Below, in pieces: positions 27,266 through 59,153 of a DNA stretch of 64,000 nucleotides. The notes below the pieces were generated by a model. It worked only from the letters and a program-made list of their open reading frames with translations, was not told the DNA's origin and did no database searches. The stretch covers positions 48,539-112,538 of the forward strand of contig DATKFW010000136.1 of assembly GCA_035511075.1 (NCBI GenBank), written 5' to 3'. A program made the position numbers and the translations under genes. Position 1 is the first letter of the stretch. The number at the start of each line of letters is the position of its first letter. This DNA comes from Vulcanimicrobiaceae bacterium (GTDB lineage Bacteria > Verrucomicrobiota > Verrucomicrobiia > Limisphaerales > Palsa-1400).

Positions 27266-27280
27266 AACAGAATGCCTATG

Positions 27281-36119: not shown

Positions 36120-37961
36120 TCAGTTAGTCGTGGGGACGGCCCCGCCAGGCGGTTGGGCCGCGGCACCTTGCTTTTGCATTTGGCTCAATTGCGAACCCAG
36201 GGCGGTCACCTGTCGCTGCAAGTTAATTACTTGGTTGTTGAGGACATCCGTCGGATTGGTGACATCGAAACCAACGGCCACATCGCCTTTGAAGTAAACT
36301 GTCAGCGGCTGTGTAATGTTGAACGCCGCCGGCGCGTATTGTTTGCTCGAGGCCACGGCGGAGTCCGTCCACGCGGGGTCGGCGCTTATGTCTTTCACGA
36401 TGATATTGGAATTTGCGTTGTTGTCCCCATCTCTTTTTAGCTGCAACGGAGCGGTGGCAATCTGGTAAGACATCAAGGCCGTCGACACGTCCGCCGAGTT
36501 CTTGCCCACAAGCCCGCGCAAATCCACGGTTGTCGCGGTCGGCACTGCCGCGTTTGTCAGCGCCGCGCCAATTTTCTGGGTGACGTACGAGGTGACGTAG
36601 TGGTTCATCATCGCCGCGTTGCTGAACCCGGTCGAAGTGAAGGCCTCTCTGTAGACATAGGTTGTGTCAAGAAACCTTTCCCTCATTTTCTCTTCCCCGC
36701 AGCAAAGGTCGCTCAAGCCGGGGCCGAGGCCGCTTAACGACAACCAATAGAATAACGCCGGGAAGGTGACCACTTGCCTGCGGCCTCCGCCAAAGTGGCA
36801 AATGTTGGTGATTTTCCCGTTTTTCACCGTTACGCACGCCAGGATCAACCGGCTGTCGCAAGGGTCCGGCGGACACGGCGGAAGCAAAGACGTGCAAAAG
36901 CAATCCAGGGCCGCGGCGATCAGGGTTTCCCCAATCTTGGCGCTGACCTGCTGCAGTTTGGCGATATAGGCGGGGTCGGGATCAGGTTGGGGGTCCTTTG
37001 GGGGAGTGGGAACCGTAATGTCCGCCAGTTTGGACTCCAACTTGCAATGGGTGACAAACGAATCGGACAGTGCGTTTTGGACTGTCGAAAGATAGTTGCA
37101 CACGGCTTGGTATGCCTGCTGATCTGTGGGCGAATAACCGACTGGAAGCGGGTTCTGCGCGTAAAGCGTTTTCAGCCCGTCAACGCACTGACAGATCTGG
37201 TATTCCAATGTGCCCGGCTGGGGTCCGTCCGTTTGGCTCGTTGCCGGCGCCTCGCAAACCACACCGACCTGGAACCCCTCGATGACGCGGGTCGGTTCGC
37301 ACGCCCCGGTCGTCGCCGTCGAGCTGGTCTGGCTCGCCGAAGACGAGCATCCGCAAGTCGAGGAAGATGACGATGACGAAGAGGAAGAAGCACGGGTGCC
37401 ACCGCTCATAGTAGTCTGCCCCTGGGTTCCGCAACTCCCATTGCTCGAGGTCTGCTGCAGCGGCGTCACCATCCGTGATTGTTGTTCCTGATATTGAATC
37501 GTGATGCACCACGTCTGGCTCACGTCCTGACATGTCGGAGGCGGGGGCGTGTACCGCAGGGGCGAGCAATTACTCGTGGTCTGGGCCGGCTTGCAACAGG
37601 CCTGGATGGCTTTGAGGACGTTGAAGGGATAGTCCTGGCAGACAATGATGTCATTGCCGCACGGATCGATGGCGTAACCGGTCTTGACGGTGACCCAGCC
37701 ATCGCACTCGCTGCACACCACCTGCATCCCGCACACCACGCCCCAGCCGTGCAGAAAGCGATTGTGCAGGCGGTTCTTGGCGAGCAAGTACGATTGTTCG
37801 TGGTTCAGGTCTCCGTCGGTGAGCAACTGCCCGGCGAAGTAACGTGTGCGGTCGAGACACTTCAGTCCGGTGCAAGCCGGGCAGGTGCAAGCCGCCGCAG
37901 TAGTCGGCGCCGTTGTGGTCGTGACGGGTAGTTTAGGATTAGGTGCAGAGATATACGCCAT
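36120..37961 (-). CDS. CIS fibre-like protein 2 (613 aa), cysteine-rich with poly-Ser tract
   Basis: I moved the start to MAYISAPNPK (ATG at 37961). The tracked 67-codon extension overlaps the upstream gene. Shared N-terminal module: CTCPACTGLKC...RYFAGQLLTDGDLNHEQSYLLAKNRLHNRFLHGWGVVCGM...GYAIDPCGNDIIV. I count 31 Cys, all in the first ~440 residues, and there is a run of 10 consecutive Ser. Confidence 0.7.
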   Translation of the reverse strand: MAYISAPNPKLPVTTTTAPTTAAACTCPACTGLKCLDRTRYFAGQLLTDGDLNHEQSYLLAKNRLHNRFLHGWGVVCGMQVVCSECDGWVTVKTGYAIDPCGNDIIVCQDYPFNVLKAIQACCKPAQTTSNCSPLRYTPPPPTCQDVSQTWCITIQYQEQQSRMVTPLQQTSSNGSCGTQGQTTMSGGTRASSSSSSSSSSTCGCSSSASQTSSTATTGACEPTRVIEGFQVGVVCEAPATSQTDGPQPGTLEYQICQCVDGLKTLYAQNPLPVGYSPTDQQAYQAVCNYLSTVQNALSDSFVTHCKLESKLADITVPTPPKDPQPDPDPAYIAKLQQVSAKIGETLIAAALDCFCTSLLPPCPPDPCDSRLILACVTVKNGKITNICHFGGGRRQVVTFPALFYWLSLSGLGPGLSDLCCGEEKMRERFLDTTYVYREAFTSTGFSNAAMMNHYVTSYVTQKIGAALTNAAVPTATTVDLRGLVGKNSADVSTALMSYQIATAPLQLKRDGDNNANSNIIVKDISADPAWTDSAVASSKQYAPAAFNITQPLTVYFKGDVAVGFDVTNPTDVLNNQVINLQRQVTALGSQLSQMQKQGAAAQPPGGAVPTTN

Positions 37962-38010
37962 GTGATTTCTCCAGTTTGTTTTTTCTGCCGGATCGGTCTG
38001 AATTTCTCGC

Positions 38011-40557
38011 CTATGTGCCCGGTGCGGGCAGTGTGAACCAACTGAAAAACAACCCGCCTTCGAGACCGAGGCCACTGCCCGCTGGGATCTCTCCGGTGGG
38101 GAACTGTGCTCGGACGAATTCAGAGCAAACCGCCAGGCCTGTCGCGTCCAGGACAAAGTCACCTCTCAACCGCACTCGAATTTCCGCACCATTCAGCGCA
38201 GGGGGGATTTTGCTGGCGGGAAATAAGAACGCGAGGCCGTTTGCAGGCAACGTTGTGACTTTAGATACGTTTGCGGCCGGAATTGGATTAGGAATCGGGT
38301 TTCCGGCAATCGTCACCGGAAAAACTGCACCACGAATCAGATATTCGTTCGCAGCCGCCACGCCAATCAAGCTCTTAGTCGTTGGTACCAAGGCCGACAC
38401 TTGGAAGGAATTGAAATCCACTGGTGTTTGGGTTGAAATTGGACCGGAGAAAGCTACGACCAAACCCAAAAAATCAGTGTCTTTGATTTGAATTAGCTGC
38501 TGAGAATTCGAGGCGTGAACCCAACTGAGGGCAGTAATCCGGGTCAGGTTTGGTTCCAATCCCGGTCCTGCCGGCCCCGTTTGGCCCGTTTGCCCCGTTT
38601 GGCCCGTTTGCCCCGTTTGCCCGGTGGTCCCCGTTGGCCCCGTGGCGCCCTGCGCGCCAGTACTTCCTGCCACTCCCTGTGGACCGGCTGGCCCCGCCGG
38701 TCCCGTCAGGCCTTGCGGTCCGGCCGGGCCGGTGCCAGGTCCTTGTTCCAGCAGACACCGAACGACTTCCGTCAGCAAGTCCGTGCTGACCAAAAGACGG
38801 CGATCCTTCAGATTGTCAATCTGATCGGTCCCAGGGGGATGGGAAGTCGGATTCGTGATTGAATCGCCATAGATGTAACCATCGACGGTGGCCAGGACGA
38901 TGCAGTTGCCATCCGCGCAATCCGGACAGGGCTCAAGCGCTTCCTCAAACAGGCACCCACAATCTGTTTGAGACACATTAATAATTGCCACTCCGCCAGC
39001 CGTGCTGTCAGCCGGGTTGATCCAGGGAACGTAGAGATTCGTGCCGTCCTGAGAGAGCGTCTCGTCCACCGGTCCGATTCCAACAGCAACCGGCGCTCCG
39101 AGGTAGTTCGGTTGGCTTGCTTCGATGGCGTGCCTGTTCACGGCCTGCACGTAGGCGGTGTTCGCCGCGTCTTGTTCCAAAACGTACGCCCAGTGCCCGC
39201 CCGGTGACATCAACACTTCGATCGGCGCATATTGGAAGCCGGTCGCTGTTTGGGTCTCAACATTCGCCGAACCGGGTCCGGTCGCCGGTATCTTGACGAA
39301 ATACAGCGTTGAAGCCGCCGGGGTCGTGTCGAGCGCTGCCAGGACATCGCCCGCAGTGGTGGTCGCAATCGCCAGAGAGGACGGTTTCGTATTCGCGGGC
39401 AGCGCGATTGAAATCGCGGTTGTTGGGAGTGGCGCAAGCTGAATCGCGCTGACAATATTGCTCCCACTGGCCGCATAGGCATACAGCCCGCCCGGACTGA
39501 CGGCGACGGAAATGGGTGCGGCTGGCAACGTGACTGCCGTGGAAGTCGCGGCGGGGGCGGCCGCGTTTACTCCGCTCCAAACTGCCATACCCGCCGTCGG
39601 GCCAAACGAAATGAGCATCCCTTCCTGTCCCGGAACGGCGACCAGACGAAGTTTCGAATCGCTAACTGTGCCCACGTTGATTTGCTGCACCGTCGCGGTC
39701 AGGTTTGTCGCCGCGAACACGCTGATCTGTGGCAGTGCCGCTGCCCCCGCGGGCTGCGTCGCCACGTAGATGAAATCTCCCTCCGGCGCGATGGCCAGGT
39801 CCAGGCCCGTGGCGTTCGAGAATACGAATGGCGGGGGTATCTGCGTGTATTTGTCGTCGAAAACGTACAACGTCGCCGTCGAGGCGCCGCCCGACGTGAC
39901 CGAAGTCAACACGTAGAGGCTATTGCTGTCCGGATTTTCCGCCACCGCTGCGACGCCCGTCAGATTGAGCGTATTGGCCCACTTCAACTTCACGTCTCGC
40001 GCGTCGGCCGCGACGGGCTTCGGATCAATGTTCACGTCGAACTCATGGCCCTCCAGGATGCGATTGGGCTGGCACGATGCGCCGTTGCAACTGCAATCGT
40101 CGAAGAGGACCGGCATGTCTTCGGTGGGGCACTCCTTGTAGCGGAGGCAGATTTGAATCGTGTGTTTGGTCGTCGTATCCGGCTGCGAATTTTGCCCGTT
40201 TTGCTGCTGCCAATTGGCCAGAAACCGCGCTTTGAAATCGAAATATTCCTCGCATGTCACAAGTATCTCGCGGCCGCAACAATCAATGGCCGTTCCGGGC
40301 TTAATCACGACATACTGTTTCTGGCAGGCTGGATTGGGGTGCTGCTCGACCTTCAACCCGCACACCGCGCCCCATCCGTGCAGGCGCTGGTTATGCCGCC
40401 GGAGTTTGCCCATGGTGTATCGCTGTTCATCGGTGAAATCGCGCTCGACCAGCAGCTTGCCTGTGAAATAATTGTTGCGCGCCAATTGCGTGATGTCGCA
40501 CTCCACGCAGCCACTCCTGGCGCCAGACGGGATGTTTTTGCAATTGCAGTTACCCAT
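38011..40557 (-). CDS. CIS fibre-like protein 1 (848 aa): Cys-rich N-module, beta-propeller-like repeats, collagen-like Gly-X-Y tract
   Basis: Shared N-terminal module: [17 protein letters not shown]...[41 protein letters not shown]...[13 protein letters not shown]. The central part has repeats of the LYV/YVA type ([37 protein letters not shown]). Then 19 uninterrupted G-X-Y triplets ([57 protein letters not shown]). Confidence 0.75.
38576..38620. repeat. Five tandem 9-bp units (CCCGTTTGS) encoding (GQT)5 inside the collagen-like tract
   Basis: Read directly from the sequence: cccgtttgg cccgtttgc cccgtttgg cccgtttgc cccgtttgc. It is coding (minus strand), not a CRISPR array. Confidence 0.9.
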
Positions 40558-40574
40558 GATTCAAGGTCTTTCTT

Positions 40575-42815
40575 TCAGTTCAAAACAGTGTTGCTGCCCA
40601 GTCGCGAGTCGCCGCCAATCTGCAACGGACGCGCCGTCTGCTTCTCTCCCGGTGTGCCAAGCACGGTATCGTAACCGAGCTGGCCCTGGCCCGCGATCAC
40701 ACCCTGCGGATACCTGGCAATGACCGTGTCCACGCCGATAAACCCCTGAATTCCCACGCGCATCCGCGGCTCGGCCCATTCCAAAGTCCCAAGCGTGTGC
40801 GCGGGCTTGGCCATATCGATGATTTGCAGCAGAGCCTGCCGATCGCTTTCGCCGGCCCCCGGCCATCGAGGCACCACCACCAGGAATTGGTGGGCGTAGG
40901 CGTTGAAAAGATCCAGGCTGGGGTTGCCGTAATCGATCAACTGAAACGATCCGACCCGCGAATTGACGCCCACCTGCAAGCGCTTCGTGACCGCGTCGCC
41001 GAACACGGCCGAGCAATCCCCCAGTTTCGAGCCGTTCACAAACAGCCAGCGTCGCAGGCGGAATTGTTCGAGAATCCGCGGGCGCACCCCGGCGTAGAGT
41101 TCAATCTGCAGCCGCATTCCTTTGGGCGTTCCCCGCAACGCGAACAGCCGATGCGCCTGCCTCACCAGCTCCCGGCGTTTTTCCACCGGCCAGTTGTTCT
41201 GCAAACTCATTCCCAGCCAGGAGGCCAGCCAGGAAAGAAAATCCGTCCCTCCGGTGTTTTTTCGGTTGGCGGGCGTCGCCATGGGATCAAAATAGCGCGC
41301 AATGTCGGTGACCTGATCGGAAGTCTTCCCCCAAATCGTGTCAAATATAGACAGGAACCGGTCCAGAAAATCACTGCTGACCGGGTCTTCACGGTAAACG
41401 GCGGGCAAGTATTGCAGCGAGGAAGCGCGCGGATAATATACCTTCACTTTTCGGATTTCAGGCGTCGCCGCGCCGTCGCCGGTCAGGGTCAGCCGCAACC
41501 ACAAGTAACGCCCTGGCTGACTTCGAATCAGGCAATCCCATTTGCCGGTGGTGGTGTCCGTATCGGTTTGGTTTGTGGCCCAGCGGCTTTCCCCCAGACT
41601 GAGGATCTCTTCGATGGTTTTCGCCGACTCCGCGGTGAACGTATCCACGGTCACTCCCGTTCCAAGCGGAACTGAGCCTTCCAGCCAGACTCGATGCCAG
41701 ACGCACCGATAAGTCTTGCTGTCGAGCGCATCGGAATAGTAAGTGCCCTCGGTTTGGTAAGCAGCCGGCGTCGTGAGCTGGCAAACGCGCTGGGCGCCGT
41801 CCGCGTACAACGGATTGCCGCACCGGTCATACATCAGCGAGGCGGCAAATGCTTTCGTCGATCCGCAGCACTTGAAGGAGCACCAGTTTCCATCGCCGTC
41901 CGGTTGGTAAAAGTAAATCCGCCGCGTGACGCAATCGCTCAAGCAGAGGTTGCCATTGACATCCACGGCCACGGCCGTCGGGCAAAAGCGGCCCTTGATC
42001 TCATCGGGTTGCCCTACTTTGCCGGCGAACTCGCCGTTGGGATTCAAAACGACCACGCAATTTTGGTTTTCCTGAACCACGTAAATCCTTCCAGCCTGGT
42101 CCAGCGCCACGCGCGTCGGCTTGACCAATGCCGGTGAGGTCGCCCCAGCGCCCGTGTAGGCCGCGCGCCAGCAGCCCTGCGCGTCAAAGACGTGAATCAA
42201 CCCATTCGAATAGTCGGAGACGTAGGCCCAGTTTCGCGGGGAAATGGCAACATCCCACGGCTGCCAGGTCCCCGGCGGCAGAGCGCGCTGCGCTTTGCAG
42301 TTGGGTCCGGATTGCGGCATCACCACGGTCGGGACGGCCTGATCCACGCTGATTCCAGCGGCTGACGAGGTCACCTTTAAGGGCCCCCAAATGCCGCGCA
42401 ACGCGAGGCCCTTTGCGGAAAAAATTTGCACGCGGCTGTTGCCCGTATCCGCGACATAGATATTGTCCAATCCGGAAACCGCCAGGCCGCGTGGGTTACA
42501 GAACTGGCGCGGATCGCTGCCGGACCCGCCCGTGCATGGCAGCACAACGAACTGTTGCAGGCAAGGGTCAAAGCGCTTAAGGAGGCAGGCTTTGCAGTCA
42601 AGTATATACACCCGGTCCCGGCTGTCAATGGCCACGCCGATCGCCGCCAGCAGGCCGCCGAGGCTCCCGGCGGCATCCGTCAACGGCCGCTCGGACCCCG
42701 GCACTGCCTGGAGGCTCAAGACCTTGCCGCCCTGCGTGAGTGTCGCGTTGACCAGCGACGCTTCGCGCCAGCCAGCCAGCCCGTTGAGCAGGTAATGAGG
42801 TGTTTGGGGAGGCAT
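40575..42815 (-). CDS. Baseplate wedge protein: N-terminal NHL-repeat beta-propeller fused to a P2 gpI-type tail protein domain (Cis12-like)
   Basis: 746 aa. NHL-type repeats: PRGLAVSGLDNIYVADTGNSRVQIFSAKG, PWDVAISPRNWAYVSDYSNGLIHVFDAQG, PTRVALDQAGRIYVVQENQNCVVVLNPNG and PTAVAVDVNGNLCLSDCVTRRIYFYQPDG. C-terminal Tail_P2_I pattern: LQYLPAVYREDPVSSDFLDRFLSIFD...FLSWLASWLGMSL...ALRGTPKGMRLQIELYAG. Confidence 0.85.
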   Translation of the reverse strand: MPPQTPHYLLNGLAGWREASLVNATLTQGGKVLSLQAVPGSERPLTDAAGSLGGLLAAIGVAIDSRDRVYILDCKACLLKRFDPCLQQFVVLPCTGGSGSDPRQFCNPRGLAVSGLDNIYVADTGNSRVQIFSAKGLALRGIWGPLKVTSSAAGISVDQAVPTVVMPQSGPNCKAQRALPPGTWQPWDVAISPRNWAYVSDYSNGLIHVFDAQGCWRAAYTGAGATSPALVKPTRVALDQAGRIYVVQENQNCVVVLNPNGEFAGKVGQPDEIKGRFCPTAVAVDVNGNLCLSDCVTRRIYFYQPDGDGNWCSFKCCGSTKAFAASLMYDRCGNPLYADGAQRVCQLTTPAAYQTEGTYYSDALDSKTYRCVWHRVWLEGSVPLGTGVTVDTFTAESAKTIEEILSLGESRWATNQTDTDTTTGKWDCLIRSQPGRYLWLRLTLTGDGAATPEIRKVKVYYPRASSLQYLPAVYREDPVSSDFLDRFLSIFDTIWGKTSDQVTDIARYFDPMATPANRKNTGGTDFLSWLASWLGMSLQNNWPVEKRRELVRQAHRLFALRGTPKGMRLQIELYAGVRPRILEQFRLRRWLFVNGSKLGDCSAVFGDAVTKRLQVGVNSRVGSFQLIDYGNPSLDLFNAYAHQFLVVVPRWPGAGESDRQALLQIIDMAKPAHTLGTLEWAEPRMRVGIQGFIGVDTVIARYPQGVIAGQGQLGYDTVLGTPGEKQTARPLQIGGDSRLGSNTVLN

Positions 42816-42827
42816 TTTGCCGATCTC

Positions 42828-44840
42828 CTAGGATGAAGTGTCGTACGACACCGAAACATCGTGGCCCAAAGGATCGTTGGTGAGCAGTTCTCCGGGATTA
42901 ATTGGCACGTCCCGGCAAAATGTCTGCATTTGGTCGTCCAGAAATATCAACAACTGGTTGTCCTGGATTATATCGACGCCCGGAGTATCCAGGATAACTC
43001 GATAGACATCCGAATAATAAATTTCCCCGCCAAATGGCCAGCCGGTCCCGTCGTCACCGCCCTGCAGCGGACTGAAGAAGGTGGTAAGCGCGTCCTGGAC
43101 CGCAGTTTGCACCGTCGCAAGATCGAACCCCGCGTCAACAATGATCTGCACCTGGACCTTGATCTTCCGGTAAACCGGTCCCACCACGTACACTTCGCAA
43201 GTCAGCAGACGGTGGGAGTCCAGGTACGTGCATACCGCCTGCAACGTGGTCTGGTTTGGCGTCGGGTTGGCCGCGGGCGAATTGGGAACAACAACAACGG
43301 TCACCACGCCTGGAATTTGACCGTTCGGATAATCCGGGTGAAAGAGCGGCAGCGCCAGTGCGCGCGCAACGTTGCCGCCCGGCGCTTGCGTGGCCAGGTA
43401 CACAAAATCGTCATCGGTCACCGCGCGCCCCTTGCTTTGCAACGCCTGTGGCGCGCGCAGTTGCGCGTCCGCCACAGTCTCCTCGTCGGTGCCGCCGCTG
43501 GCGGCTTGATTGTTGGTCGCCGCGTTGATCGATTGGACGGTCGTGAGGATTTGCGTGATGGTATTGGCGCCGACGTTGCCCTGACTCCCGCCGCCGGCTC
43601 GGTACATTTGCGCCATGATGTTCCCCGTCGGATTGTTCAGGTTTGCCGCCGGGATGCGTCCGTTATCTCCTGAACCCATCGTCACCACACCGGTGTCCCG
43701 GTCAAACGTAAAGACGGCGTCGTCGGGCCCTGAACTGTAGAAATCGTCCACTTCCTGCCAAACGATGAATCCCTGCCCTTCATCAACGGCGAGCTGTATG
43801 TCCGTCACTGTCACTGTGTTCGTCGCTGCCGTTTGCGTGCCACCGGATGCGCTTACCTGCAGAGGCGTGCTCAAGGCGACCACCGGCGTGTTGGCCACCT
43901 GGAAAGTTTGGTTTGGCGTGCCGTCGCTCCCGCCCAGCACTTCGTCGGTGAACGTGATTGCCTGAGTCGCGTTGGTGGTGTTGGTCAGAATGGAGGCCAC
44001 TTGCGGCGGCGTCTCGTAACTGGCGGCCGTCACTCGCGCGCGAAACCAGTAATAGTTGCCGGTCACACTGCCGATCTGCGCCATGACCACGTTGCTGCCT
44101 GGACCGAAAAAGAGGATGCTGCCGTCCTGGGAAAACGCCCGGGTTCCGTCGCTGGAAAATTCGAGCGATACCCACTGGGTGCCGTTCCAATACTCCCAGG
44201 CCAGCGTGGCGGGCGGGGGAATCGCCGCCCCGCATTGCATGATCGGTTGCGTCAAGCCATCATTGAAGAGGCTCACCGCCAGGTTGATTTGAACGTCGGG
44301 AAAAGCCACGGGCGAGGTGAAGCCCAATAGCAGCGCGCTCCCGACCTGCGAGTCCTCGCCAAAGGGATAAAACCACTGGCCGGCATTGGCGTTGGACGCG
44401 GTTTGCACCGTGTAGCCGGTTCCGTCGAATGTCTGGACAGCTCCCAGCACGGCGCCGATGACGATCAACGACTCGTCGGTCTCGAAAATAATGGGCGTCC
44501 CGGTTGCTCCCGTCGCGGCGATCTGCGTTCCCTGCGGCACGGTGACGCTCGTCAAATCGGGACGGGATACGGTGAAGGTAATTGCCGCAGTGGCCGGCTG
44601 GGCCGCCTCCAGTTCGATGCCCAGCAATTGAAGAAACTTGATGTAGTTCAGATCCGGCACCTGGTTGAGCCGGTAGACCATGATCTCCGTCATCCACGCG
44701 AATAATTCGACCAGCGTTATGCCAGGATCGCTTTCATTGAAATTGGTCCACTCCGGCACGTAGCGCGTGATGAGTGTCTTGGCTTGGGCCACTATGTCGG
44801 CGAATTGCCGATCGTCCAGATTGGGTGCGGTTAGGGGCAT
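42828..44840 (-). CDS. Baseplate J-like protein (gp6/gpJ; Cis11-like)
   Basis: 670 aa with the hallmark N-terminus LDDRQFADIVAQAKTLITRYVPEWTNFNESDPGITLVELFAWMTEIMVYRLNQVPDLNYIKFLQLLGIEL. Confidence 0.9.
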   Translation of the reverse strand: MPLTAPNLDDRQFADIVAQAKTLITRYVPEWTNFNESDPGITLVELFAWMTEIMVYRLNQVPDLNYIKFLQLLGIELEAAQPATAAITFTVSRPDLTSVTVPQGTQIAATGATGTPIIFETDESLIVIGAVLGAVQTFDGTGYTVQTASNANAGQWFYPFGEDSQVGSALLLGFTSPVAFPDVQINLAVSLFNDGLTQPIMQCGAAIPPPATLAWEYWNGTQWVSLEFSSDGTRAFSQDGSILFFGPGSNVVMAQIGSVTGNYYWFRARVTAASYETPPQVASILTNTTNATQAITFTDEVLGGSDGTPNQTFQVANTPVVALSTPLQVSASGGTQTAATNTVTVTDIQLAVDEGQGFIVWQEVDDFYSSGPDDAVFTFDRDTGVVTMGSGDNGRIPAANLNNPTGNIMAQMYRAGGGSQGNVGANTITQILTTVQSINAATNNQAASGGTDEETVADAQLRAPQALQSKGRAVTDDDFVYLATQAPGGNVARALALPLFHPDYPNGQIPGVVTVVVVPNSPAANPTPNQTTLQAVCTYLDSHRLLTCEVYVVGPVYRKIKVQVQIIVDAGFDLATVQTAVQDALTTFFSPLQGGDDGTGWPFGGEIYYSDVYRVILDTPGVDIIQDNQLLIFLDDQMQTFCRDVPINPGELLTNDPLGHDVSVSYDTSS

Positions 44841-44842
44841 TG

Positions 44843-45271
44843 TTAATCTCCCGATCCTTCGGTTATGTAGAACGGATACACCAGGTTGCCGAAGGCGTTG
44901 TTTGAGCGGATGCGGTAATCGACGCGGATCAGCATCGTATTCGCCTCGTCTGGCGCCGAAGTCACGTTGACATCCAGCACATCAATCCGCGGCTCCCATT
45001 GTGTCAGCGCATCCTTGACCAGATGCTGGATGTTTCCCTGTGTCGCGGGGCTGTTGGGCGCGAACACCAGGTCATGAATCCCGCACCCAAAGGTGGGGAG
45101 CATTTGCCGCTCCCCGCGCGCGGTTCCCAGAATAATCCAGATTGCTTCCTGAACACTCTGTTCTCCAACCGAGTAGCAAAATCCACCGGCCGGAGTGGTC
45201 CGCACCGGGAATTTCCAGCCGGTCCCCAAAAAGGGGCGCGACAGATTGGCGTTGGCAGTGTTACCGGCCAT
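44843..45271 (-). CDS. GPW/gp25-family baseplate wedge protein (Cis9-like)
   Basis: 142 aa. FLGTGWKFPV...SVQEAIWIILGTARGERQMLPTFGCGIHDLVFAPN...ALTQWEPRI is the gp25 pattern. Confidence 0.9.
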   Translation of the reverse strand: MAGNTANANLSRPFLGTGWKFPVRTTPAGGFCYSVGEQSVQEAIWIILGTARGERQMLPTFGCGIHDLVFAPNSPATQGNIQHLVKDALTQWEPRIDVLDVNVTSAPDEANTMLIRVDYRIRSNNAFGNLVYPFYITEGSGD

Positions 45272-45274
45272 AGT

Positions 45275-46027
45275 TCAACCTGCGAGACTAGCCAGAATCC
45301 CTTGTAACTCGGTAAGTGTGTTTTGCACTTCTTGCAGAGTTTCCAGCGGGCTTGTTCCGGCGGAGACGCTGGCCGAGGCAGAACCGCCCCCGGAAAGCAC
45401 GGAGCCGATGGTGGCGATGGCTTGGGGGATGGCGGTTATGGCCTGGCCAACCGGACCGGGGACCGTGGGGGCCATATTCAAAATGGGCTGAATGATGCCC
45501 AGAATGGGCGCGATCAGGCCGAGCGACAACTGAAGTTGGGCGCTGGTGGTCGCAAGGTTGTTCTGGGCGCAGGTCAATGACGCCTGAAGCGCCGGGTTGC
45601 CGGCGGCCGCGTCAAGATTGATGCTGAGTTGGGCATTGAGCAAACCTTCAACTTCTTCGATGATGCCCAGCAGAAATGTAATGATTGTGAGTAGGATGTC
45701 CACGATCATTACCACGATTTCAGTCGGGAAGGAGAAGCACTCCGAAAGGGCTAGCGCAGCTTCTGCAATCTTTGGGACGGTTGATAGGAAATTAGTGGGG
45801 CCAAGATTCTGGAATACCATGATGAAATTGAGCATCTTAAAGATGCAGCTCATCCCTGCCAGCGCGGGGGAGAGTTGCACGAAAAGGCTCTGGACGATGG
45901 CCAAATTGGTGGGCGGACCCTTTGAGTAATCAGGCATCGCATTCAAGGTGATGCCGAACGGGAGCGAAATGCTGAGCTGCGGCGGGTTGGGCAGTTGGAC
46001 GCAAGCAATGGTTTGGGTGTCAGACAT
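45275..46027 (-). CDS. Hypothetical hydrophobic protein (250 aa) in the slot between spike and gp25
   Basis: The ORF is tightly coupled to gp25, 3 nt away. It has a hydrophobic run (EIVVMIVDILLTIITFLLGIIEEV), a Gln/Leu/Ala-rich helical part and a Gly/Ser/Ala tail. No PAAR motif and no family recognised. Confidence 0.6.
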   Translation of the reverse strand: MSDTQTIACVQLPNPPQLSISLPFGITLNAMPDYSKGPPTNLAIVQSLFVQLSPALAGMSCIFKMLNFIMVFQNLGPTNFLSTVPKIAEAALALSECFSFPTEIVVMIVDILLTIITFLLGIIEEVEGLLNAQLSINLDAAAGNPALQASLTCAQNNLATTSAQLQLSLGLIAPILGIIQPILNMAPTVPGPVGQAITAIPQAIATIGSVLSGGGSASASVSAGTSPLETLQEVQNTLTELQGILASLAG

Positions 46028-55021: not shown

Positions 55022-56101
55022 TTAAAGTTGAAAATCCACCACGTTGACTGCCTGGTCGTACTCCACAAACCACTCTTGAACCTGCGTTGACGCTCCCTGA
55101 CTCGCTTGCAAATAGATCTCCTTTACACGTCCCATTCCGTCCAATCCGTAGTACCCTTCACTGTCGGTGAGCGCCCCTATTTCATGGTATTCCACGTCAG
55201 CCGCTCCGGGATCCACCGCGACTGTTGCGACCGAGAGCAGTGCGGAAGCGAGCAGAACACCGTCGCCTGCGTCGGCGTCCGCCGTGAGCGGAACGGCCGC
55301 CCCAACAGCCGTGGGATTGACGAACTGTACCGTCGTAGCCGCTCCCGCCAAATAACTTCGATTGAGCGCGTTACGCAGAAATACCTGGCCGGCTGCGCCG
55401 GCGGCTCCGGGTCCCAAATGATCGACCACGCCGTATTCCACCAACGTCAGGGAAACATTCGCAACCTGCACGATGGAACCAGCGGCCAGGCCGGTGCGTG
55501 TTGATAGATTCAAAACCGACGCGCCTCCGTTTGCGTCAGAAGTGAGCGTGGCCGATCCGGTGGAAGTCATCGTGACCTTCTGGACGGAAACCGGGAGAGC
55601 GTGGGGCGAATACAACGGCGAACGCAATGTCAGGACAAACGAGTTCGGCGGCGGAGTAGGATTGTTCACGCTCAAGACCGACGCCCCCTGGATCGGGGCG
55701 CCGGTAGTGTCGCTGACGACCCGCCCCTGAATGCGAACTGGCAGCCGGCGCATGACTACGGGCGGCACGACCACCGGAAATGTGGCGCTAGGAAGAATCG
55801 TCACTTGCACTGGAAGGTCTTGGAAACCGGGCGCGCTCAACACCAGATTGACCTCGTAAGTTGTCGGAGTGACTTGGGGAAACGACTGACCCCGATAACC
55901 GGTCACCGCGTACAGCCCGTTCTCGGTCGCGACGGCGCCCAAATCGTTCCGCGAAGTTTGAACCGCAAAACCCGGTGTATTGAAGTCCCCGAAAATCTCA
56001 TCGACGACGGTTCCAGTAATCAGCGCGCCAAACCACGTTCGGCCCGCCTCCACGACCGTGTAGGTTAGGCCATTCGCCTGGGTTTGAAATGGGGTCGTCA
56101 A
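55022..56101 (-). CDS. Hypothetical protein (359 aa) between cap and sheath genes
   Basis: Tightly spaced in the operon (21 and 33 nt). Thr/Val/Ala-rich and probably all-beta. The segment RRLPVRIQGRVVSDTTGAPIQGASV resembles carboxypeptidase-regulatory-like folds. No family recognised. Confidence 0.6.
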   Translation of the reverse strand: MTTPFQTQANGLTYTVVEAGRTWFGALITGTVVDEIFGDFNTPGFAVQTSRNDLGAVATENGLYAVTGYRGQSFPQVTPTTYEVNLVLSAPGFQDLPVQVTILPSATFPVVVPPVVMRRLPVRIQGRVVSDTTGAPIQGASVLSVNNPTPPPNSFVLTLRSPLYSPHALPVSVQKVTMTSTGSATLTSDANGGASVLNLSTRTGLAAGSIVQVANVSLTLVEYGVVDHLGPGAAGAAGQVFLRNALNRSYLAGAATTVQFVNPTAVGAAVPLTADADAGDGVLLASALLSVATVAVDPGAADVEYHEIGALTDSEGYYGLDGMGRVKEIYLQASQGASTQVQEWFVEYDQAVNVVDFQL

Positions 56102-56122: not shown

Positions 56123-56713
56123 TCAGTTCACCGCCAGAATCTGCTCGTAGGCCATTTCTTTTTTTAAGACCGGGCTCGAATGGATGGGTTCGAGTTCGGA
56201 GTCGATCTTCACCACCTGGATGAGGTATGTCACCGACAATTGGTAGGGTTCACCCAACGCGTACCAAACCAGACTCAACTCTTCAAGCGTCAGCGCTTCC
56301 AGATTGACTCGAAGTTGATCCGTCTTACCTGTCAGGGACCCTTTGAGATCGGCCCCGCGCAAGATGGCGTGATCATTAAACACCTGGAGCACCTTGCCGA
56401 GCAGGACATGCCTGGTTTCCGGATGGGTGGTCATCGGCGTGATGAGATAATAGAGCAGAACCGGTAGAGGGAACCAGGCCACCTGGTCGGGCTTCTTGCG
56501 TTGCGGCGGGTCATTTAACATCTCCGCCATGCGGCTGACTTTGTATAACCAGACTGATACTCCAATCGTTTCCCCGGCTGCCTGCATTTCCTTGGGCGAG
56601 AGCAAATGGATCGCAACACCCTTGATGTGGGGGTCCGTGCTATTGGTGATGTTGTCTTGCAAGAGATCACGCAAGGTTTTGCTGACGGCGCCAATGACGG
56701 TGTAATCGCCCAT
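56123..56713 (-). CDS. DUF4255 / Pvc16_N-type protein (Cis16-like tail terminator/cap)
   Basis: I moved the start to MGDYTVIGAVSKTLRDLLQDNI (ATG at 56713). Pattern seen: VSVWLYKVSRMAEMLN...LPVLLYYLITPM...LGKVLQVFNDHAILRG...QLSVTYLIQVV. Confidence 0.85.
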   Translation of the reverse strand: MGDYTVIGAVSKTLRDLLQDNITNSTDPHIKGVAIHLLSPKEMQAAGETIGVSVWLYKVSRMAEMLNDPPQRKKPDQVAWFPLPVLLYYLITPMTTHPETRHVLLGKVLQVFNDHAILRGADLKGSLTGKTDQLRVNLEALTLEELSLVWYALGEPYQLSVTYLIQVVKIDSELEPIHSSPVLKKEMAYEQILAVN

Positions 56714-56809
56714 GTGAATTTCCTCATCAGGCTGCGTTTTTGAGCAGGCTCCGCACGACGGCTTCCAAGCCGTGTCTCTCACTGATTCCTATGTGGCAGA
56801 CGGGGCCGG

Positions 56810-57343
56810 CTACGCTGCCGCCTGAACCCAGCGCTTTTCAATCAGCACTCGCGGGCAGGACAAAGTCTCCAAAAGAATCGCCACGCGCTTATCGTCATCC
56901 AACTCTCGCTCCACCCTGGCCATCATTCCTTCGAACGGACCATCGAGGATTGAAATCAGGTCGCCTGGCTTTAATCCCGGACGGCGGATTCTGATCAGGC
57001 CGTCTTCTTCCACTCGCTCCTGAATTTCCCGGATGACCTGATCGTCCACGGGGATCGGATACCGCCCGGACCTGACCACTTGCAACACACCGTGTGAACA
57101 CTCCACCGATGTCAATACCAATTCCGGGCAGAACCGCGCGAAGAAATAACCCGAAAATAACGGCTCGCTGTTTTCGCCCACGCCTTGAGCCGCATCGTCG
57201 TCGACCTTGAGTTTGGGGAAAAAAACTTCCAGTCCCAGCGATCTAACATTGGTTGCGGCAAAACTTTCGCGCCGGGTCTTCGCCCGAATCGCAAACCAAC
57301 TACTCGTCTGCCAGAAATTCAAATGCCTGTTGGCACAATGCAT
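56810..57343 (-). CDS. NusG-family paralogue (RfaH/UpxY/LoaP-like operon-specific antiterminator candidate)
   Basis: 177 aa. NGN-like N-terminus: WFAIRAKTRRESFAATNVRSLGLEVFFPKL...PLFSGYFFARF. C-terminal KOW: KPGDLISILDGPFEGMMARVE. It is the first gene of the CIS operon. Confidence 0.8.
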   Translation of the reverse strand: MHCANRHLNFWQTSSWFAIRAKTRRESFAATNVRSLGLEVFFPKLKVDDDAAQGVGENSEPLFSGYFFARFCPELVLTSVECSHGVLQVVRSGRYPIPVDDQVIREIQERVEEDGLIRIRRPGLKPGDLISILDGPFEGMMARVERELDDDKRVAILLETLSCPRVLIEKRWVQAAA

Positions 57344-57439
57344 AAGTTATCCAATAATCCATCCACTCGAGAACCGCGGGTTGGCGAACCAGACCTCCCC
57401 CGCCTGCTGCTGTAAGTTGTCATGAGCCGGCTCGCCTAG

Positions 57440-57456
57440 AGCAGTCCAAGTGCCAA
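57440..57456 (-). promoter_or_regulatory. Candidate sigma-54 (-24/-12) promoter of the CIS operon
   Basis: The minus strand reads TTGGCACttggaCTGCT, with exact GG-N10-GC spacing. The -12 element is CTGC rather than TTGC. It lies about 97 nt upstream of the NusG-like start codon, and an enhancer-binding protein gene lies upstream. Confidence 0.5.
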
Positions 57457-57658
57457 GATGCTAATGCGCGATTTTCCAGCAATCTCACGCATCACCCGGA
57501 CAATTTTATCCTGGCATTTCAGGCGGCGCTGAATCGGAGGCATAATTGGCGGCGCTACTTGCGCTACGAAAAAAGTCACGGTGTTGCGAGAATTTATCAT
57601 GGCCGTAGGGAGATTTTTGAACTGAATGCCCGCGGCGAGAATTGGAGCTGCGGTTGCG

Positions 57659-57970
57659 CTATTGATCCCGCCGTTTGCGCGCGTTCCGGGCCTTTGCCAG
57701 ACCGGCGCGAATCGCCTGTTTCTGCTCCGGATTCAAGCGGTAATGAGTACGCCCATCCTTACTCGACCGGGCGATCACGAAATTCTTCCTGACTAGTTCA
57801 TCCAGCGCGGCCTCGACTTCCGCGAACCTGCGATGGCTGTTGCGAGCGCCCGCCACCCACCATTCGGCTATGCCTCGCGCGGTGTCCTGCGCGTCAGGAT
57901 TTCGAATGAGATACTTGAGAACTTCGTCACCCAAGGGGTGATCGGTAAGTCCATCGCCGCTAGTATTCAT
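57659..57970 (-). CDS. Small protein (103 aa), possibly winged-helix; candidate regulatory partner
   Basis: ORF preceded by GGAGG. DELVRKNFVIARSSKDGRTHYRLNP resembles a winged-helix wing, and the C-terminal tail is basic. It sits between the EBP gene and the operon. Confidence 0.5.
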   Translation of the reverse strand: MNTSGDGLTDHPLGDEVLKYLIRNPDAQDTARGIAEWWVAGARNSHRRFAEVEAALDELVRKNFVIARSSKDGRTHYRLNPEQKQAIRAGLAKARNARKRRDQ

Positions 57971-57987
57971 GCATAAGAACCTCCTTC

Positions 57988-58003
57988 AGCAACCTGTGTG
58001 CCG
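57988..58003 (-). promoter_or_regulatory. Second candidate sigma-54 (-24/-12) promoter
   Basis: The minus strand reads cGGCACacaggTTGCT, with exact spacing and a perfect -12. Caveat: the GC of the -12 element is only 19 nt from the ATG of the 103-aa ORF, so the predicted transcript would start downstream of the GGAGG Shine-Dalgarno sequence. Confidence 0.35.
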
Positions 58004-58124
58004 ACGCATCACCGCATTTTTTCGCCACAGCGCAAGCCGACGTGAACGGCAGACTCGGTTTGCTAAAGCCTGTGATCTAACCAACCAAATTTGTCCAGGT
58101 GATGCGAGGATTTGTCCCAGTGGT

Positions 58125-59153
58125 TCACGCGCGAGTAGGCGTAACCTGGCGCGCCGATATATGGTGCTTGCGCATAAGTTCCCAGAAAGCTCGCCGGTCC
58201 TTTCCCGCGGATCGCGCGGCTTTCGTTATGTTACCCTCGTGGACCAGGAGCAACCGTTGGACATAAGTTCGCTCAAACTGGTTAATGGCGCGTGCCTTCA
58301 GCCCTCGGAAGCTTTGGTCTTCCGGTTTGCCTTCGACCTCTTGCTGGCCGATGTCGCAGATGCGAATGACCGGCTCTCCGGCAAGGACAATGGTTCGCTG
58401 AATCACGTTCTCCAGTTCCCGCACATTGCCGGGCCAGGGGTGGAAGATCAATTGACGGAGAGCCTCGGGCGACAACTCGCGCGATTTGGCCCCGAACTTC
58501 TCCTGATATTTAACCAGAAAATGCTTGGCCAGCAGCACAATGTCGTCTTCCCGCTGGCGGAGGGGCGGCAGTCTTAAGATTACCACGTTGAGCCGATAGT
58601 AGAGATCCCTGCGGAATCGACCCGACTCAACGGCCAGACTCAGATCGGCGTTTGAGGCGGCAATGATACGAACATCGGCGGTGCAGAACCGTTCGGAACC
58701 CAGCGGACGGAATTGGCCGTCTTGAATGAAGCGAAGCAGTTTCACCTGGGCTAGGGCCGGAAGACAATCCACCTCATCCAGGAAGAGTGTGCCGCCATCC
58801 GCCTCCTTGAGCAGGCCCCGCCGGCAGGATGTGGCGCTGGTGTAGGCGCCGGACTCATGGCCAAAGAACTCATTTTCCAGGAGATCAACCGGGATGGCGC
58901 CGCAGTTCACGGGAACGAACGGCTTGGATGCCCGCGCGCTTGAATAATGAATTGCCCGGGCAAACACCTCCTTGCCCGTGCCGGTTTCCCCGAGAATCAA
59001 AACACAAACATCGTAGCGGGCGATCGCGGGTATTTGAGCGGTCAATGCTACAATGGCCGGGCTCTCACCGATGACCTGCCCCAACCCCGCCGCGGCGCGG
59101 ACCGGGGTGCCCGTCGAGCCTCTCTCATCGAATGGAATCCTGAGATGATCCAC
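58125..59153 (-). CDS. Sigma-54-dependent enhancer-binding protein without sensory domain (AAA+ core plus Fis-type HTH)
   Basis: 342 aa. Walker A ILGETGTGKE, GAFTGA-loop variant ESGAYTSA, Walker B GGTLFLDEVD, RFRRDLYYRL, WPGNVRELEN, and C-terminal HTH GNITKAARSAGKDRRAFWELMRKH. The AAA+ core begins about residue 27. Confidence 0.9.
   Translation of the reverse strand: MDHLRIPFDERGSTGTPVRAAAGLGQVIGESPAIVALTAQIPAIARYDVCVLILGETGTGKEVFARAIHYSSARASKPFVPVNCGAIPVDLLENEFFGHESGAYTSATSCRRGLLKEADGGTLFLDEVDCLPALAQVKLLRFIQDGQFRPLGSERFCTADVRIIAASNADLSLAVESGRFRRDLYYRLNVVILRLPPLRQREDDIVLLAKHFLVKYQEKFGAKSRELSPEALRQLIFHPWPGNVRELENVIQRTIVLAGEPVIRICDIGQQEVEGKPEDQSFRGLKARAINQFERTYVQRLLLVHEGNITKAARSAGKDRRAFWELMRKHHISARQVTPTRA

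Follow-up and report, generated by a model that had tools for sequence, protein, structure and literature searches.

Why does a gene of the NusG family stand directly before the structural genes of a contractile injection system (CIS), and how might its product serve an operon some 34 kb long? The question is raised by the 64-kb window analysed here (the whole stretch of 64,000 nucleotides from contig DATKFW010000136.1; coordinates count from its first letter), in which an open reading frame (ORF) at 56810..57343 on the minus strand encodes a NusG paralogue of 177 aa and is followed on the same strand by the genes of an extracellular CIS (eCIS). The main finding is a conserved element, consisting of a hairpin and an ops-like box, behind the stop codon of the paralogue gene. 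The paralogue is probably dedicated to the CIS operon and loaded at this hairpin-box site, giving RfaH/UpxY-like read-through of ~34 kb, a reading to which we assign a probability of about 70%. The regulation of eCIS is poorly understood beyond a few insect pathogens, and eCIS are being engineered for protein delivery.

The hairpin-box element behind the paralogue gene

Alignment of the DNA 3′ of the paralogue stop codon revealed a covarying hairpin followed by an invariant box (GTGCGGAGCYTGCCCAAA), together located at 56773..56739 in the window. The hairpin (ACGGCTT-GG-AAGCCGT; 56758..56773, minus strand), recognised by covariation of its stem, is a candidate pause hairpin; the ops-like box (GTGCGGAGCCTGCTCAAA; 56739..56756, minus strand), recovered by alignment and by pattern and covariance-model searches, consists of a core, TGCGGAGC, and then N-T-G. 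Of 81 loci in which the homologue is intact and the sequence runs on for 120 nt or more downstream, 79 carry the 9-mer GTGCGGAGC after the stop codon, starting 42–58 nt behind it in 76 loci and 91–156 nt behind it in three. This 9-mer is invariant across all aligned elements and extends to a box, GTGCGGAGC(C/T)TGCCCAAA, that is directly preceded by a 6–8-bp hairpin with the family consensus AACGGC-N6-GCCGTT. The next gene in the window, pvc16, probably starts at ATG 56713, which has a GAGGAA ribosome-binding site, so that the element is non-coding; an alternative GTG at 56782 would overlap it.

Pairing, and not the sequence of the stem, is what has been kept. In the alignment, 92% of cells are paired and nine are double-change cells, compared with 2.9 in shuffles (none of 500 reached nine), and sliding the partner columns abolishes the pairing. 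A relative with 40% identity has the same box with a wholly different stem (CCCGG/CCGGG). A covariance model recognises only one copy in the window, at 54.9 bits, the next-best match there reaching 12.9; in 692 kb of loci it gives 85 hits, all on the paralogue strand and just 3′ of the paralogue gene, with none near the distant homologues or the orphan paralogue. The box keeps within a narrow range of distances from the stop codon (median 51 nt), but its distance to the next gene varies from 22 to >1000 nt, which indicates that the element belongs to the paralogue gene and not to its cargo. It is kept whatever the promoter class or downstream cluster; the orphan paralogue, with no operon behind it, lacks the element. 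No U-tract is present at the element, and an Rfam search of 56500..58200 matched no family. Some loci have two copies (L054, 362..2319; L059; L093); L054 apparently contains two tandem paralogue genes with an element after each.

The box closely resembles the sites of characterised NusG paralogues. In Bacteroides, a 2024 study of UpxY described opsX as a region of ~40 bp in which a pause-hairpin-encoding segment is followed by a non-template-strand hairpin, 5′-YGCGNAGCR, and likened it to the E. coli ops core, 5′-GCGGTAGC (PMC11685472). The box core TGCGGAGC (T-GCG-G-AGC) fits YGCGNAGC, its last position being Y rather than the R of YGCGNAGCR, and differs from the E. coli ops core GCGGTAGC only by the lack of one T (T6). 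The spacing in the window, with the hairpin end, one nucleotide and then Y-GCG, is the same as in PSE opsX (ttggctgaga...tctcacccaaCTGCGAAGCATA; PMC11685472). The exact 12-nt ops (GGCGGTAGNNTG) is absent; shortly ahead of the structural genes, within transcribed DNA, there is instead an invariant variant, GTGCGGAGCYTG, whose core differs from that of ops only in lacking T6. Two bases past the box core stands an invariant T, and the G next to it is near-invariant; these two mirror T11/G12 of ops, which we take to be the ops pause position. A search of the literature for the box sequence gave only unrelated primer matches.

One locus combines both types of core. In a high-GC viral contig (L122; IMGVR_UViG_2824350403_000001, 8930..9800), a hairpin and TGTGCGGAGCCTGC lie 47 nt behind the stop codon of a gene for an NGN protein (25% identity; Pfam 45.9 bits), and a strong intrinsic terminator comes next; ggttgTGCGGTAGCgcgg, with the canonical ops core, lies 202 nt after the stop, placing the canonical TGCGGTAGC site 155 nt beyond the hairpin-box. 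The presence of both after one NGN gene suggests that the two core variants are used side by side behind a NusG paralogue gene. tblastn with the CIS proteins of the window detected no CIS gene here, and neighbouring and downstream ORFs had no Pfam match. L122 came from a hairpin-anchored pattern scan of viral contigs, which otherwise returned one member of the paralogue clade (L119) and two antisense chance hits. A preceding scan for the box alone was discarded: its 11 hits represent five distinct sequences with no hairpin, NusG or CIS genes, approximately the chance level. Four AT-rich viral contigs (L108, L114, L116 and L117) carry an exact GTGCGGAGCCTGCCCAAA directly after a strong TTGACT-N17-TATAAT promoter, with no preceding hairpin and no NusG or CIS gene; 18 nt of identity at a transcript start is odd, but these matches are probably due to chance.

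An ops-like recruitment element thus exists, as the earlier note on this DNA had proposed, but it lies after the gene and not in the ~90-nt leader where that note had placed it. The leader (~87 nt; 57344..57430, minus strand) holds no conserved element in the alignment of relatives and was rejected as an ops site, alignment to the closest relative being conserved only around the start codon. Motifs collected from 67 upstream regions by k-mer and visual comparison were coding or ribosome-binding signals only (CGGCGATGAA is start codon context and TTGAACC lies within a small gene). Near the distant homologues L012–L019 and L100, no ops-type motif was found within −400 to +300 nt.

The paralogue and its link to injection systems

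The start codon of the paralogue ORF is the ATG at 57343, and the peptides that the earlier note quoted in calling an NGN-KOW protein are present in its translation. A 14-residue N-terminal extension is kept across the family, with W11 in at least 90% of 108 sequences, making this ATG a credible start. Pfam NusG/NGN (PF02357) matches residues 15–107 with 43.5 bits (cut-off 22.2), and the C-terminal part aligns with the KOW of RfaH and NusG. An AlphaFold2 model built with 108 family members (predicted local distance difference test, pLDDT, 84) has a short N-terminal helix, an NGN domain and a five-strand beta-barrel KOW; its best Foldseek matches are active-state RfaH on the elongation complex (6c6s_D and 8phk_P), and both RfaH and NusG are matched at E ~1e-10. 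In a sequence search of PDB, RfaH is top (E 1e-9, residues 15–161) and housekeeping NusG proteins are far weaker (E. coli NusG, E ~2e-3).

None of the models for named subfamilies is passed. Scores are 65.8 bits against a cut-off of 144.5 (TIGR01955) and 60.4 against 124 (NF006534) for RfaH, 59.9 against 100 for UpxY (NF033644), 39.1 against 125 for LoaP (NF033641) and 26.8 against 135.7 for the NusG equivalog (TIGR00922); relatives likewise fall below the RfaH cut-offs. From these profile scores and the RfaH-like structure matches, the protein is a specialised NusG paralogue, in keeping with the earlier note, outside all named subfamilies. In E. coli the context of nusG is secE-nusG-rplK; in the window, which contains no housekeeping nusG, the paralogue is flanked by genes for a sigma-54 activator and a winged-helix protein and by those of the eCIS. 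A neighbour-joining tree, made with few references, without support values and without UpxY, LoaP, TaA or ActX sequences, sets the paralogue clade apart from E. coli NusG, RfaH and AnfA1, and joins it to paralogues of Acidobacteriota and Nitrospirota, far from E. coli NusG.

The clade is narrow: an exhaustive search of 50%-identity cluster representatives gave 15 clusters at E ≤ 1e-30 compared with 4802 at E ≤ 1e-3. A word-indexed search with the paralogue returned 331 homologues (54–73% identity among the matches listed), and 19 genome loci and 80 metagenome loci were compared. CIS genes were counted by tblastn with the window proteins wherever a locus, in most cases from Verrucomicrobiota, had a homologue sharing 44% identity or more and continued for 700 nt or more downstream; a CIS gene lies directly downstream on the same strand in 53 of these 59 loci, bearing out the proposed tie between the paralogue and the ~34-kb CIS operon. 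The link is seen both where pvc16 and where a sheath gene comes first, and a sigma-54 activator gene lies upstream of the paralogue in 34 of the 37 loci with room for it. Among the exceptions, three (L035, L051 and L052) precede a different contractile-tail cluster (488-aa sheath, tube and tail chaperone), one (L091) has a Linocin_M18/HK97-like gene downstream and one (L057) is a short locus. The last (L020, with L100–L103; protein P0002) holds the closest homologue (73% identity), which is convergent with a glycosyltransferase-rich polysaccharide operon; the P0002 gene of L100–L103 has its own sigma-54-like site and no CIS genes nearby. Distant homologues (35–37% identity) from Acidobacteriota and Nitrospirota are placed in sugar or exopolysaccharide clusters.

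All genome loci with a close homologue belong to Verrucomicrobiota (Chthoniobacterales/Terrimicrobiaceae). Proteins identical to those of the window are labelled Candidatus Baltobacteraceae (Eremiobacterota) by NCBI, and the disagreement between this label and the Verrucomicrobiota relatives suggests a mis-binned source contig or horizontal transfer.

Proposed read-through at the element, its rivals and known systems

By analogy with RfaH and UpxY, co-transcription, pausing, binding and antitermination at this locus would probably proceed as follows. The activator would open the sigma-54 promoter or promoters, and the winged-helix gene and/or the paralogue would be transcribed and translated. 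RNA polymerase would pause at the bipartite site ~50 nt past the paralogue stop codon, where the box (GTGCGGAGCcTG) would come after a nascent-RNA hairpin; on the non-template DNA strand, the box core GCGGAGC is able to fold into a small hairpin of its own. The NGN domain of the paralogue would bind this exposed hairpin together with the polymerase, and the polymerase thus modified would resist pausing and termination across the ~34-kb operon, including a hairpin insertion within it.

Several observations weigh against this reading. RNAalifold returned no consensus structure for the 94-column alignment, the hairpin having been set by hand and checked with pair counts. The closest homologue (73% identity; L020/L100–L103) is stand-alone and without a hairpin-box element. 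Of the RfaH residues that we take to read ops (K10, H20, R23, Q24 and R73), alignments show that the clade keeps only the equivalents of K10 and R73; in the window protein the R73 position is H, and those of H20, R23 and Q24 are N, A and L. All five AlphaFold2 models have a beta-barrel KOW, with no sign of RfaH-type autoinhibition, although AlphaFold2 is known to miss alternative folds and such models neither show nor exclude fold switching. Co-transcription of the paralogue with the CIS genes is presumed from strand, short gaps and the lack of a predicted terminator. Finally, consensus scans revealed no clear excess of intrinsic terminators in the operon: 40–59.5 kb holds 15 compared with 22.7 expected, and 20–40 kb holds 34 compared with 24.8 ± 4.9. 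The earlier note had drawn a plausible need for antitermination from the length of the transcription unit and its repeat insertion; a terminator excess was dropped as a rationale for it, although the insertion (~46071..46209) is real.

Could the hairpin and box instead be a DNA operator or promoter of the CIS structural genes, to which the activator, an alternative sigma factor or the winged-helix protein would bind, with the NusG paralogue a mere neighbour or acting elsewhere? The stem is an inverted repeat, as is common in operators, the cassette encodes a DNA-binding protein and the structural genes are always preceded by the box. However, loci without a small helix-turn-helix (HTH) gene (class C, below) keep the box, the stem covaries without conservation of the sequence itself, and the element is strictly strand-specific and tethered to the paralogue stop codon, not to the start of the next gene. 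The box was also rejected as a sigma-54 or sigma-70 promoter, its consensus having neither GG-N10-GC nor a −35/−10 pattern with a conserved −10, and in L122 it accompanies a distant NGN gene where tblastn with the window CIS proteins detects no CIS gene and the neighbours have no Pfam match. An operator or promoter is accordingly improbable. Much the same may be said of the idea that the element, independently of the paralogue, is a signal for RNA processing, stability or translation, for example an RNase site with a protective 5′ or 3′ hairpin that splits scarce regulatory from abundant structural mRNA. Its position exactly at the boundary of regulatory and structural genes, the combination of a hairpin with a single-stranded conserved tail and the lack of a U-tract, which argues against a classical terminator, would all suit such a signal, but an invariant 9-nt core matching the ops/opsX hairpin core is not expected of an RNase site (the chance of GCGNAGC in a 9-mer is ~7e-4 under uniform base composition). 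Moreover, the element travels with NGN genes of 25–73% identity, and in L122 it sits beside a canonical GCGGTAGC site, leaving this explanation with a low probability.

It is also conceivable, if rather unlikely, that the paralogue binds the box but acts as a pause or attenuation brake, or mainly couples ribosomes to CIS mRNAs poor in ribosome-binding sites; the KOW of RfaH recruits ribosomes. The lack of a clear terminator excess in the operon would fit, and some UpxY proteins enhance rather than suppress the ops pause (PMC11685472). On the other side, the first CIS gene has a good GAGGAA ribosome-binding site, and the characterised operon-linked paralogues RfaH, UpxY, LoaP and AnfA1 are all net activators of long operons (PMC6748792, PMC11685472).

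Loading of the paralogue at the hairpin-box followed by read-through would thus add a new lineage and a new layout to a known kind of control. The link of NusG paralogues to CIS is already known: AnfA1, an RfaH-like protein encoded adjoining the Serratia afp cluster, is reported to activate Afp, and ops is present in PVC leaders (PMC6748792), while RfaH was listed among adjacent eCIS regulators by Geller et al. (2021), as repeated in a 2026 review. The earlier note knew of no described CIS-dedicated NusG paralogue, but such CIS-linked paralogues are thus on record. The literature covered, which was incomplete, contained no description of this clade, of an eCIS cassette with sigma-54 promoter, activator and winged-helix gene, or of the box sequence.

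RfaH is the best match of the window protein by hidden Markov model (HMM) and structure, and the two systems share an NGN-KOW paralogue, one invariant short site serving all targets and control of long horizontally acquired operons, including PVC-type CIS. In both, the core GCGG(T)AGC and then N-T-G lies on the non-template sense strand (GGCGGTAGCGTG in ops, GTGCGG-AGCCTG here). However, identity to RfaH is only 24% and the score lies under the equivalog cut-off, T6 is missing from the box and most ops-reading residues are changed, no alpha-helical autoinhibited C-terminal domain is predicted, the upstream hairpin is part of the element and the promoter is predicted to be sigma-54 dependent. 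In addition, rfaH acts in trans, whereas the factor in the window is encoded in cis, immediately 5′ of its own site.

UpxY, resident in Bacteroides capsule operons, is similar in layout, with a NusG paralogue inside its operon, a bipartite site of ~40 bp in which a pause-hairpin region is directly followed by a non-template YGCGNAGC hairpin, and one nucleotide between hairpin and Y-GCG. It differs in that opsX lies in the leader before upxY and diverges from operon to operon, with UpxZ anti-factors, whereas the window site follows the paralogue gene and has one invariant box. The second gene of UpxY operons is upxZ; here the next gene encodes Pvc16_N or a sheath, and no UpxZ-like gene was recognised. 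The phylum is also different, the cargo is a CIS and not a capsule, and the UpxY model is not reached (59.9 vs 100 bits). LoaP, encoded beside long polyketide operons in Firmicutes, likewise has its target next to it, and its recruitment depends on a small hairpin within the transcribed leader (summary in PMC11685472). In the proposed model, the KOW of LoaP reads an RNA hairpin, whereas an ops-type DNA core is also present here, and the LoaP HMM gives the window protein 39.1 bits against a cut-off of 125.

Control of type VI secretion system (T6SS) clusters by sigma-54 depends on VasH-type activators. Such clusters resemble the present one in placing a contractile machine under a dedicated enhancer-binding protein and sigma-54 promoters, but are not known to have a NusG paralogue or ops-like site, and here the sigma-54 promoter would drive regulatory genes first. 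RpoN regulation of the Vibrio cholerae T6SS is named as the subject of one paper.

AnfA1 is a parallel in cargo, its gene being upstream of and co-oriented with an eCIS cluster. It was located by walking pADAP (70418..70864; 8419–8865 in L107), after tblastn with RfaH had led to other plasmid paralogues near RHS and pilus genes. Identity to the window protein is 20–23%, in the NGN domain only (BLASTP 23%, E 1e-6); its gene lies 4 kb upstream of afp1, which starts at 12896 in L107, with a lysis cassette between; no hairpin-GTGCGGAGC element was found in L107. In the neighbour-joining tree AnfA1 groups with RfaH and plasmid paralogues, and its separate branch makes the CIS link of the window clade independent; the association of NusG paralogues with CIS thus seems, on this tree, to have arisen at least twice. 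pADAP-type Serratia plasmids carry further NusG-family genes (pADAP; L106, 19667..20149; L104/L105), one by a type IV pilus/conjugation cluster and one by an RHS toxin gene, so that one plasmid hosts several operon-specific paralogues.

For many CIS clusters of soil Verrucomicrobiota, these results outline a concrete control module that lends itself to testing. Its parts are the sigma-54 activator, which has no sensor domain, the small protein with a winged helix, the NusG paralogue dedicated to the CIS and, over 35 nt, the hairpin and box, a site open to mutation and transplantation. Should full-length transcription depend on this module, 30–40-kb CIS operons could be expressed in a heterologous host only together with the paralogue and its site. 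A lineage is added in which a NusG paralogue pairs with a GCG..AGC-type site, with recruitment demonstrated only for RfaH and UpxY and presumed here, and it is the first case found with the site directly after the factor's own gene; this bears on the evolution of ops recognition and on how paralogues avoid competition with housekeeping NusG. More tentatively, and with the odds rather against the combination, the cassette may be portable and 'self-loading' and the GCG-N(1–2)-AGC non-template hairpin an ancient recognition code of NusG paralogues. Self-loading would mean that newly made paralogue is captured in cis by a polymerase paused 42–58 nt past its stop codon, and that contractile-tail clusters, after sigma-54 activation, are licensed transcript by transcript; an ancient code would make the hairpin common to Pseudomonadota, Bacteroidota and Verrucomicrobiota rather than a lineage-specific invention.

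The eCIS operon, upstream genes and promoters

The first structural gene encodes a Pvc16_N/Afp16-like protein (56123..56713, minus strand; Pfam Pvc16_N, 126.4 bits from residue 32 of the long ORF). The remaining eCIS genes (23138..56101, minus strand; Pfam) encode sheaths, tubes, baseplate, fibre, AAA+ ATPase and DUF4157 effector-type proteins: Pvc16_N is followed on the same strand by a 359-aa protein, two sheaths, two gp19 tubes, a LysM-tube protein, gpD and a VgrG-like spike, and then by gp25, Baseplate_J, Tail_P2_I, a collagen-like fibre, an AAA+ ATPase and two DUF4157/eCIS_core proteins, to ~23138. The eCIS hallmark set (sheath, tube, gp25, Baseplate_J, VgrG-like spike, Pvc16/DUF4255 and AAA+ ATPase) is complete on the minus strand at 28885–56782, and by its gene content the cluster is identified as an Afp/PVC-type eCIS of ~34 kb.

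Between the VgrG-like gene and the next ORF, folding of the gap revealed a long imperfect hairpin insertion followed by CUCUUUUCUG (46071..46209, minus strand), probably the 'hairpin-bearing repeat insertion' of the earlier note. It sits in a 215-nt gap (46028..46242; minimum free energy −69.9 kcal/mol) with arms at 46209..46190 and 46090..46071. The equivalent gap in L008 is only ~105 nt, about half as long, so the repeat looks like an insertion that makes a terminator-like hairpin, and thus a putative obstacle, inside the operon.

Upstream of the paralogue, 58125..59153 (minus strand) encodes a sigma-54 enhancer-binding protein of 342 aa (Pfam Sigma54_activat, 213.7 bits, and AAA_lid_14; C-terminal HTH). 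NCBIfam matches to bacterial enhancer-binding proteins begin at residues 23–28 and the AAA+ domain starts at residue 27, leaving no N-terminal sensor or receiver domain (PspF/HrpS-like). The homologues in L052 and L091 are 501 aa long with an additional N-terminal part, and the input signal of the cassette therefore seems, from these ORFs, to differ between loci.

Between activator and paralogue lies a small winged-helix (PadR/MarR-like) gene, sm103 (57659..57970, minus strand; 103 aa), assigned by AlphaFold2 and Foldseek and matching no Pfam family. Its model (pLDDT 78) has the topology H-H-H-b-b-H and matches PadR/MarR/Fur-type regulators at template-modelling (TM) scores of 0.6–0.68. Homologues, with conserved DAQDT and WW motifs, occupy the same place in ~40 loci as the first gene of the sigma-54 unit. 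In the window, sm103 is co-oriented with the paralogue, 315 nt upstream of it, with no terminator predicted between the two.

A scan of both strands of the window for YGGCACN6TGCW gave only two matches to the sigma-54 −24/−12 consensus: P1 (CGGCACACAGGTTGCT; 57988..58003, minus strand), just upstream of sm103, where class A relatives also have their sigma-54 sites, and P2 (TGGCACTTGGACTGCT; 57440..57455, minus strand), 96 nt ahead of the paralogue ATG. A site similar to P2 is found at a comparable distance in the closest homologue (L020/L100). In most relatives the sigma-54 element lies 340–480 nt upstream of the conserved WFA codon of the paralogue, ahead of a small gene (winged-helix family in ~40 loci, otherwise another small HTH-like ORF), and small gene and paralogue share one sigma-54 promoter; the usual order is thus promoter, small regulator, paralogue, CIS. 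The earlier note had made the paralogue the first gene of the operon, and P2 is consistent with this, but the co-oriented sm103 with P1 upstream is not: the window has both promoters, and the paralogue is the second gene in most relatives. In seven loci (class C: L002, L009, L031, L036, L037, L071 and L084) the promoter is directly before the paralogue, without a small HTH gene; here the sigma-54 site is only ~20–35 nt before candidate start codons, leaving essentially no leader.

A 16-nt motif, TTGTCCRGGTGATGCG, found by exact repeat scan, accompanies each site: one copy (58091..58106, plus strand) is ~88 nt upstream of P1 and the other (57488..57503, minus strand) ~33 nt upstream of the −24 element of P2. 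Two exact copies, in opposite orientations, compare with 0.12 expected by chance in 64 kb, and in other loci the DNA preceding the sigma-54 sites is enriched in TTTTCCGGAAAA (17 of 48) and GGACAAA/TTTGTCC (8–10 of 48). Either the activator or the winged-helix protein may bind TTGTCCRGGTGATGCG, a candidate upstream activating sequence or operator.

A second promoter class, with AAAGCT in the −12 region (e.g. TGGCACGCGCAAAGCT), occurs ~340–480 nt upstream of the paralogue in L003, L005, L008, L022, L024, L029, L035, L051, L060 and others. Loci of this class have a different small ORF, with an MCxxxLG..F.I motif and possibly an HTH, in place of the winged-helix gene.

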